Origin: Escherichia coli
GTDB lineage: Bacteria; Pseudomonadota; Gammaproteobacteria; Enterobacterales; Enterobacteriaceae
Assembly (NCBI RefSeq): GCF_003018115.1
Contig: NZ_CP027457.1
Length of the DNA stretch: 64,000 bases
Strand: one strand, 5' to 3'
Position numbers: made by a program. Of this stretch, positions 45,221-48,200 are shown piece by piece (the stretch's first letter is position 1; each line of letters begins with the position of its first letter).

Positions 45221-48200
45221 TAATGATGTGCCACATCCGGCATGGTATGCCGGATGTGGCGTATGCTGATAAGACGCGCCAGCGTCGCATCAGGCAACCG
45301 GCTCGGGCGTTGGATGTCGGATGCGGCGTAACCGCCTTATCCGACCTACGGGGTGGAGCACTTCACAGCGGTGTAGGCCTGATAAGACGCGTCAGCGTCG
45401 CATCAGGCAACCGGCTCGGACGTTGGATGTCGGATGCGGCGTAACCGCCTTATCCGACCTACGGGGTGGAGCACTTCACAGCGGTGTAGGCCTGATAAGA
45501 CGCGCCAGCGTCGCATCAGGCAACCGGCTCGGGCGTTAGATGTTGGATGCGGCGTAACCGCCTTATCCAACCTATGGGGTGCCGCACTTCACGGCAGTTT
45601 AGCGAACTTCCGCGTTGTTAATTTTCTCTTCTGCCTTCCAGACGCGGTATTTCACATCTACATTGTCTGGCGTATACACCACGATCGGCAGCTTGCTGTT
45701 GTAACGCAGCATTCCAGCATCGCCCAGATACGCGGTGACAAATTTCTTCTCTTTCTTGCCATCCGGGCAGGCCATCATCGTGGAAACCGGCGAGCTAACT
45801 TTATCAAAGACATAATAATCATAGCCCCAGCCTTCCAGCGTTTTGCTTTCCAGCTTCCCGCCGAGACGATGCAAATTGCAATCGACTTCCAGCGTCTGAC
45901 CGATTAACAGTTCTACTTTCAGGGTAGATTCATCTTCTTGCGGGGTTAACTGAATCACCTGACGCTTCATGCCTTTTTCAGCTTGTGGATAAGGCGCGAT
46001 TTTTTCCAGTGGCTGGACGCTCTCTGCCGCCCAGGCGGAAGTGGTGGCAAAAGCGGCAAACAATACTGCAGGTAGAATGGTCTTCATTTTTTGCTTTCCT
46101 TCTTCATTTATAGGTTTGCACCGATGATGTCGCTGAAGGTTAACATATTCATCAGATTTATTAATTTGCTTTATGAATAACTTAAAGAATATTCAGACAA
46201 TTTTACCTTCTCTTTTAGTGTTAAATTCTGATGAGAGAGCAAACCAGCAGAAATATCTCTGGTGAATTAATCGCTATATAAATATATTTATAACCATTTG
46301 AAATGTGAGCAAAAGCCCGTTTTTGCCACGCTTCCCGCCACTCTTTTGATCCTGCTACAGGTTTTACCTCGATCGGGGTATGCATCTTTGACACATCCTT
46401 TAATATCTTAGCGGCTATAAAAATGGCTTATTAATTATGCGGTTTATTTGGTCGCTCTCAATTTTCAGAGCGCGTTAATGATGGAAGGTCAATGTGAAGA
46501 TTGATGCATCCCGTCGGGGCATACTCACTGGTCGCTGGCGCAAAGCCAGTAACGGTATCCGTCCGCCCTGGTCCGGTGATGAATCTCATTTTCTGACCCA
46601 TTGCACCCGCTGCGACGCCTGTATTAATGCTTGTGAAAACAACATTCTGCAACGCGGCGCGGGCGGCTATCCGAGCGTTAATTTCAAAAATAACGAGTGC
46701 AGCTTCTGTTACGCCTGCGCGCAGGCTTGCCCCGAATCGCTATTTTCTCCGCGCCACACCAGGGCCTGGGATTTGCAGTTCACCATTGGGGACGCGTGCC
46801 TGGCGTATCAGTCAGTTGAATGCCGCCGCTGTCAGGATAGCTGTGAGCCAATGGCAATTATCTTTCGCCCGACGCTCTCCGGGATCTACCAGCCGCAACT
46901 TAATAGCCAACTTTGCAACGGATGTGGAGCATGTGCAGCCAGCTGTCCGGTATCAGCCATAACTGCGGAGTATCTCCATGCACACTAACTGGCAAGTTTG
47001 CAGCCTGGTCGTGCAGGCCAAAAGCGAACGAATTTCAGACATCAGCACCCAACTGAACGCCTTTCCCGGCTGTGAAGTTGCTGTCAGCGACGCGCCGAGC
47101 GGTCAGTTGATTGTGGTGGTGGAAGCAGAAGACAGCGAAACGCTGATCCAAACCATTGAGTCAGTACGCAACGTAGAGGGCGTGCTGGCGGTGTCGCTGG
47201 TTTATCACCAGCAGGAAGAGCAAGGTGAGGAAACACCATGAAACTCAGTCGTCGTAGCTTTATGAAAGCTAACGCCGTTGCGGCCGCTGCGGCGGCTGCC
47301 GGTCTCAGCGTGCCGGGCGTTGCCCGCGCCGTTGTTGGTCAGCAGGAAGCCATTAAATGGGACAAAGCGCCGTGCCGTTTCTGCGGTACTGGTTGCGGCG
47401 TTCTGGTCGGAACGCAGCAGGGGCGTGTGGTGGCCTGTCAGGGCGACCCGGACGCACCGGTTAACCGTGGCCTGAACTGCATTAAGGGCTATTTCCTGCC
47501 CAAGATCATGTACGGTAAAGACCGTTTGACGCAGCCGCTGCTGCGTATGAAAAACGGTAAATATGACAAAGAAGGCGAATTTACCCCAATCACCTGGGAT
47601 CAAGCCTTTGATGTGATGGAAGAGAAATTCAAAACCGCCCTGAAAGAAAAAGGGCCGGAATCGATCGGTATGTTCGGTTCTGGTCAGTGGACTATCTGGG
47701 AAGGTTATGCCGCGTCCAAGCTGTTTAAAGCGGGCTTCCGTTCGAACAACATCGACCCGAACGCGCGTCACTGTATGGCGTCGGCAGTAGTTGGCTTTAT
47801 GCGTACCTTTGGTATGGATGAGCCGATGGGCTGCTATGACGACATCGAGCAGGCTGACGCGTTTGTGCTGTGGGGCGCAAACATGGCGGAGATGCACCCG
47901 ATCCTCTGGTCACGCATCACTAACCGTCGTCTCTCTAACCAGGACGTCACCGTGGCGGTGCTTTCAACCTACCAGCATCGTAGCTTCGAGCTGGCGGATA
48001 ACGGCATCATCTTTACGCCGCAATCTGACCTGGTGATCCTGAACTACATCGCCAACTATATCATTCAAAACAATGCGATAAATCAGGACTTCTTTAGCAA
48101 ACACGTTAACCTGCGCAAAGGGGCGACGGACATCGGCTACGGTTTACGTCCGACCCATCCGCTGGAAAAAGCAGCGAAGAATCCGGGTTCTGACGCCTCC

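Follow-up and report, generated by a model that had tools for sequence, protein, structure and literature searches.

The window analysed here, a stretch of 64,000 nucleotides from E. coli contig NZ_CP027457.1, carries between mqo and eco a short tandem array that is very probably the three-unit allele of the known E. coli mqo-eco BIME-2, named REP161 in K-12. This assessment covers the whole explanation given below, i.e. the identity of the allele together with the proposed steps involving DNA gyrase, RNA and unit turnover. The element itself is already known: it is a catalogued and experimentally studied BIME-2, and its K-12 allele has been characterised since 1997. Our analysis adds three points, namely that the palindrome leading the array is a separate element, that the array lies in the 3′UTR of eco, and that the locus forms an allelic series of 1 to about 12 units with an insertion of IS621 in one allele.

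An ORF scan and the RefSeq annotation of E. coli strain F9792 placed mqo, encoding the 548-aa malate dehydrogenase (quinone), at 43577–45223 on the plus strand with a TAA stop codon at 45221–45223, and eco, encoding the 162-aa ecotin, at 45599–46087 on the minus strand with its stop codon at 45599–45601. The two genes are convergent, so that both 3′ ends fall inside the spacer, which measures 375 bp in the window. The array lies entirely between the two stop codons and is thus extragenic. A 975-bp stretch around it is 100% identical to the complete genome of F9792, in which RefSeq names mqo and eco and annotates no feature between them. In the surrounding sequence, the 3′ end of mqo (45163–45186) contains a 12-nt tandem duplication, GCCGAAACCGCA / GCTGAAACCGCA, which encodes a repeated PKPQ/LKPQ in the C-terminal tail. 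A small ORF between eco and napF (46221–46394, minus strand) is the 54-aa yojO or hypothetical protein of RefSeq genomes.

Tandem Repeats Finder reported a single array within 44000–47000, located at 45266–45592, with a period of 113 nt, 2.9 copies, 95% matches, no indels and a score of 598. The in-register copies obtained by repeat search are 45266–45378, 45379–45491 (98% to the first) and 45492–45604 (90% to the first). In the alignment of the three copies the mean column identity was 96%, with pairwise differences at 2 to 11 positions and most of the differences in the third copy, which abuts the eco stop codon and is only about 107 nt long. These results confirm the central claim of the first-pass annotation, which had described three head-to-tail units of about 113 bp between mqo and eco. 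The unit starts it gave (45268, 45381 and 45492) were correct to within 2 nt, but they are out of register: the first two are offset from the third by 2 nt. Similarly, the interval 45224–45598 that it assigned to the BIME does contain the repeat from 45266 onwards (the first Z2 REP from 45261), whereas its first 42 nt, 45224–45265, lie outside the repeat and form a separate single-copy palindrome.

Each unit had also been said to contain two REP palindromes. We found two imperfect palindromes in every unit, one Z2-type and one Y-type REP. The order within the unit is a Z2 REP on the minus strand, a 20-nt head-to-head linker, a Y REP on the plus strand and a 23-nt tail-to-tail linker. The Z2 REP spans 36 nt, and its minus-strand reading GCCTGATGCGACGCTGGCGCGTCTTATCAGGCCTAC equals the published Z2 consensus, exactly so in the third copy; the Y-type REP spans 34 nt on the plus strand and reads GTCGGATGCGGCGTAACCGCCTTATCCGACCTAC. 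The features of the array and its surroundings are listed below, including ORFs and Rfam matches to which we return later.

45226–45264, no strand assigned: locus-specific palindrome, not a REP; perfect 14-bp stem 45230–45243 / 45247–45260 with a 3-nt loop
45261–45295, minus strand: Z2-type REP no. 1; degenerate tail GTATGC instead of GTAGGCC, a 1-nt deletion by which the GTAG tetranucleotide is lost
45296–45315, and again 45409–45428 and 45522–45541: head-to-head linker, 20 nt, AACCGGCTCGGGCGTTGGAT
45316–45349, plus strand: Y-type REP no. 1, GTCGGATGCGGCGTAACCGCCTTATCCGACCTAC
45350–45372, and again 45463–45485: tail-to-tail linker, 23 nt, GGGGTGGAGCACTTCACAGCGGT, a locus-specific junction
45373–45408, minus strand: Z2-type REP no. 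2; GTAG intact, with the IS621 target ATCAGGCCTAC at 45373–45383
45429–45462, plus strand: Y-type REP no. 2
45486–45521, minus strand: Z2-type REP no. 3, identical to the Z2 consensus GCCTGATGCGACGCTGGCGCGTCTTATCAGGCCTAC, with an IS621 target at 45486–45496
45542–45575, plus strand: Y-type REP no. 3; compensated stem change GTTGGAT...ATCCAAC and degenerate tail CTAT instead of CTAC
45576–45598: terminal linker variant GGGGTGCCGCACTTCACGGCAGT, with a small predicted hairpin of 5–6 bp beside the eco stop codon
45223–45444, plus strand: ORF of 73 aa
45321–45539, plus strand: ORF of 72 aa
45434–45907, plus strand: ORF of 157 aa
45264–45346, minus strand (eco-sense): match to Rfam naRNA4 (RF02564), 63.8 bits
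45376–45459, minus strand (eco-sense): match to RF02564, 75.3 bits
45489–45572, minus strand (eco-sense): match to RF02564, 75.3 bits

The BIME-2 class is defined by z2 and y REPs in multiple tandem copies whose number varies between strains, and its linkers differ in length and sequence from locus to locus (Ton-Hoang 2012). The array has alternating Z2 and Y REPs, tandem copies in strain-variable number, the hallmarks of REPs and an extragenic position. Because its Z2 and Y REPs stand in opposite orientations and in tandem, it fits this definition, and we therefore refine the earlier designation to BIME-2. The four internal REPs keep both GTAG/CTAC and the canonical internal stem mismatch, and the two outermost REPs are degenerate, with GTAT and CTAT. 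In the last Y REP the stem has changed in a compensated manner from GTCGGAT/ATCCGAC to GTTGGAT/ATCCAAC, and a half-changed intermediate is common in other alleles. When G-U and C-A intermediates of the REP stems were compared to find the strand under selection, types compatible with either strand both occurred. The GGGGTGCCGCACTTCACGGCAGT linker variant closes the array in all multi-copy E. coli alleles and in the single-copy allele of O157:H7; a diverged terminal linker is found in single-copy B2 alleles and in cryptic Escherichia E1V33.

The first-pass annotation had held that copy number at this locus varies between strains, and comparison across E. coli genomes bore this out, giving 1 to about 12 units. 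In a census of the spacer in 60 evenly spaced genomes, for which only the two flanks served as query and unit counts are arithmetic on the reported spans, one unit was found in 36 genomes, three in 4, four in 2, five in 3, six in 12 and seven in 2, and the locus was split in one. The one-unit allele is thus the commonest, with about 60% of the sampled genomes. A 48-nt internal junction of the array was present in 2008 of 5426 complete E. coli genomes, each of which carries it between 1 and 11 times (median 5). K-12 strains have it at 5 places, the n−1 of a six-unit array, which indicates that the unit is specific to the mqo-eco locus; by the same reckoning, up to 11 junctions per genome imply arrays of up to about 12 units. 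K-12 has six units in a 714-bp spacer, compared with three in 375 bp in the window, and both the ST131 strain EC958 and O157:H7 have one unit in 149 bp.

Strain M3 and Escherichia sp. E1V33 also have three units, with SNP patterns that differ from that of the window. In the latter, a cryptic Escherichia, the same palindrome is followed by three 113-bp units, and the first Z2 tail, GTAGGCC, is intact. The same arrangement is thus also found outside E. coli proper. A scan for the tail-to-tail linker in one genome per species returned only a chance hit in Lautropia and cryptic Escherichia E1V33, although as an exact-match pattern it missed even the E. coli representative and carries little information on the age of the array. 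Rearranged alleles were also seen, with a 121-nt hybrid unit, a 22-bp deletion or a 10-bp deletion. In strain BL12 the 121-nt hybrid is unit 6, in which a duplicated eco-stop junction CGGCAGTTTAGCG is fused to GTGTAGGC; judged from its sequence, it looks like the footprint of a duplication with a breakpoint at the array end. Assemblies of K-12 derivatives differ as well, with 6 units in ER3413, 5 in TUM22767 and 4 in C600-p2-V, where exactly units 3 and 4 are missing, a loss between the identical units 2 and 4. These differences reflect either real instability or recombination, or collapse in assembly. As a typing marker, a use that had been suggested earlier, the array is indeed variable, but its value is limited by the one-copy allele shared by so many genomes and by the differences among K-12 derivatives.

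Between mqo and the first unit lies the locus-specific palindrome, which begins 3–7 nt past the mqo stop codon. In the predicted fold of mqo-sense RNA its stem reaches 18 pairs, including two G-U pairs. Of 5426 complete E. coli genomes, 5414 contain it exactly once, so it is not a dispersed repeat. For K-12, Table 16 of a 2026 preprint, reproduced from a published compilation of bidirectional terminators at convergent gene pairs, includes a hairpin at 2305063–2305108 assigned to eco:mqo, with an 18-bp stem, −33.4 kcal/mol, log phase, and flagged REP161. The interval given in this table marks where the ends of the converging mqo and eco transcripts overlap. On the basis of this entry, the palindrome corresponds to the bidirectional terminator mapped in K-12 between eco and mqo. 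Since the K-12 transcript ends overlap at the palindrome, transcripts of eco in that strain traverse the entire array before they end there, and those of mqo stop just beyond the palindrome. The array is mainly 3′UTR of eco, and it lies "downstream of mqo" only for read-through transcripts. As the palindrome has no U tract, the 3′ ends mapped there may also result from exonuclease trimming instead of termination. A canonical rho-independent terminator was considered and rejected, the palindrome and the REPs being without a T tract. A scan of 44900–46300 found no promoter-like site anywhere in this region. Its sole T-tract terminator match lies inside mqo, and neither strand of the spacer gave one.

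Folding of the spacer gave predicted energies of −195.3 kcal/mol (z −7.3) for the plus strand and −181.5 kcal/mol (z −7.5) for the minus strand relative to shuffled controls, and both strands form strings of predicted REP hairpins. The expectation of extensive mRNA secondary structure downstream of mqo is thus supported as far as strong predicted folding goes, on both strands, but the transcript concerned is mostly that of eco. At the RNA level, eco transcripts would run through six REP hairpins in a 3′UTR of about 375 nt and end at the palindrome, where most mqo transcripts would stop as well. The REP hairpins may act as leaky terminators and as blocks to 3′ exonucleases, by analogy with REP325 and its 12 hairpins. 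REP325 is described as a partly Rho-dependent attenuator or terminator that stabilises the upstream mRNA and yields a ladder of hairpin-ended transcripts, and REPs between convergent genes accompany higher expression of both genes (2026 preprint). Genome-wide, REPs show no uniform change of mRNA half-life.

At the DNA level, the array would place about three gyrase sites where two transcription units converge. The K-12 array, a documented hotspot of gyrase cleavage, is listed as 'BIMEs2 2308874-2309528, 654 bp, eco>-<mqo' and contained 11 gyrase cleavage sites by Topo-seq with ciprofloxacin, 7 with rifampicin and ciprofloxacin, 2 with microcin B17 and 5 with oxolinic acid (Sutormin et al. 2018). 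Gyrase favours Y over Z2 REPs, and the BIME-2 gyrase signal increases, not decreases, under transcription block (Sutormin et al. 2018). Six gyrase cuts in vivo are quoted there for the K-12 array as 'Espeli, Boccard 1997: 6 cuts'. Set beside its six units, this number suggests one gyrase site per unit, from which three would be expected in the window. The gyrase and 3′-end data all come from the six-unit K-12 allele and are carried to the window strain by inference. Recombination or slippage between near-identical copies would add and remove units, possibly with the participation of the REP-associated transposase TnpAREP. This enzyme cleaves and recombines BIMEs in vitro and needs GTAG (Ton-Hoang 2012); against its involvement in the window stands the loss of GTAG from the two outermost REPs. 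The high share of single-unit genomes counts against the proposed role and indicates that extra units are dispensable.

It is possible, although we regard it as doubtful, that REP/RAYT activity together with replication slippage produced the array as a selfish or neutral by-product, without host function and with only incidental effects on gyrase and RNA. Such an origin would agree with a copy number of 1 to about 12 in which one unit is commonest, with the rearranged units, with the unequal K-12 derivatives, with the in vitro activity of TnpAREP and with the IS621 insertion within the array of one strain. It accounts less well for the REP stem, whose pairing has been preserved through a compensated double change while the canonical internal mismatch was kept, or for the conservation of the layout: a Z2-Y pair is present in every allele examined, the palindrome is nearly universal in E. 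coli, and cryptic Escherichia has both. A neutral origin is compatible with the local effects proposed for the three-unit BIME-2 and does not exclude them. That the count of three is itself an artefact, a collapsed or expanded repeat, seems very improbable. Arrays of near-identical 113-bp units do collapse easily, and one K-12 derivative assembly lacks exactly two units between identical ones; in the window, however, the array is only about 340 bp long and its units can be told apart, the complete F9792 genome is identical over 975 bp, and M3 and E1V33 have three units with different SNP patterns.

Two further readings would assign the array a gene product. We consider it improbable that the three units are naRNA4-type genes, whose two-hairpin RNAs would bind HU, bridge DNA cruciforms and condense the nucleoid. 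All three units score above the RF02564 gathering score of 59.5 bits on the minus strand, and Qian 2015 proposed the naRNA4 model for REP325. However, RF02564 is essentially a model of the Y + Z2 REP pair, and it also matches the window BIMEs at 10266–10336 and 33313–33389, so that we read a match as a label for the repeat and not as a sign of an independent RNA gene. The array has a 20-nt linker compared with 13 nt in the model, and in a spacer without a promoter-like site any such RNA would be a by-product of eco read-through. Moreover, deletion or overexpression of REP325/naRNA4 leaves the nucleoid volume unchanged, and REP-REP contacts are absent in Hi-C (2026 preprint). Even more remote is the prospect of a genuine small protein encoded by at least one of the overlapping ORFs, which we regard as scarcely conceivable. 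Three such ORFs, already called spurious in the first-pass annotation, are open on the plus strand, but the only Pfam hit has an E-value of 0.15 and 12 bits against a cut-off of 23, PGAP annotates none of them in the identical F9792 genome, and none of the three exact products was found in a collection of 15 billion proteins. The 72-aa and 157-aa ORFs begin at the same ATG of successive units, but their frames differ, as a period of 113 is not divisible by 3 and shifts the frame at each unit. With other copy numbers the ORFs are altered or lost, and the longest passes through eco on the antisense strand. All three arise from the repeat as by-products, and the caution to gene callers derived from them is weak in practice, given that PGAP leaves them out and the protein collection searched lacks their exact products.

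The IS621 insertion mentioned above is found in E. coli 2017-02-2CC (NZ_AP027764.1, locus 2233–4000), where this IS110-family element, whose recombinase uses a bridge RNA, lies inside the mqo-eco array. It is inserted at the CT core of ATCAGGC|CT|AC in a Z2 REP tail, in agreement with the published natural target. In the window, seven exact copies of ATCAGGCCTAC were found in REP tails, two of them in the array on the minus strand (Z2 REPs no. 2 and 3) and the others at 10242–10252, 10329–10339, 10350–10360, 17194–17204 and 58762–58772. The window also carries a full-length match to the sRNA MicF at 37146–37239 on the minus strand (Rfam RF00033, 116.8 bits). The other REP elements of the window are:

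8728–8763: lone Z2-like REP
10212–10387: two-unit BIME-2 with an 86-bp period
17145–17234: Y+Z2 pair
33310–33462: Y-Z2-Y
58687–58794: Y+Z1 pair with a linker of about 35 nt, BIME-1-like

Beyond correct annotation, by which the spacer is a repeat plus a terminator hairpin and not coding sequence, the importance of these findings is small. Copy number at mqo-eco is a length polymorphism in 113-bp steps that is prone to mis-assembly, and the exact natural IS621 targets at this site are relevant to users of the wild-type bridge RNA in E. coli. We can also imagine, as a rather unlikely extension, that unit number serves as a heritable and fast-changing dial which determines how many gyrase sites stand between the two converging genes and, at the same time, what length and structure the eco 3′UTR has. 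In that case lineages with 1, 3, 6 or 12 units would differ in eco/mqo expression or local supercoiling, and the 6, 5 and 4 units of the K-12 derivatives would be real changes over decades.

Finally, we compared the array with known systems. BIME-1, composed of Y and Z1 with a long L linker that carries an IHF site, shares the inverted REP pair in an intergenic spacer. However, BIME-1 contains Z1 REPs, is found singly and shows no enrichment of gyrase cleavage; the mqo-eco array was not assigned to this class, as it is built from Z2 instead of Z1 REPs, repeats its unit in tandem and has a linker of 20 nt. With the natural targets of IS621 the array shares the exact 11-nt ATCAGGCCTAC in Z2 REPs no. 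2 and 3, although the window itself contains no IS621 insertion and the target is a general property of REP tails, not specific to this locus. REP325 (naRNA1-6, yjdM-yjdN) is likewise a tandem BIME-2 of Y + Z2 units. It differs in its locus, in lying between tandem and not convergent genes, in its 13-nt head-to-head linker (20 nt here) and in its linker sequences, and its proposed role in the nucleoid is now disputed (2026 preprint). REP161 of K-12, by comparison, has the same locus and flanks, the same leading palindrome, the same 113-bp Z2-linker-Y-linker unit and the same terminal unit abutting the eco stop codon. Apart from unit number, a few base changes set the window apart from it; two of them lie in the outer stem of the palindrome, and another has left the last Y REP with a degenerate GTAG.
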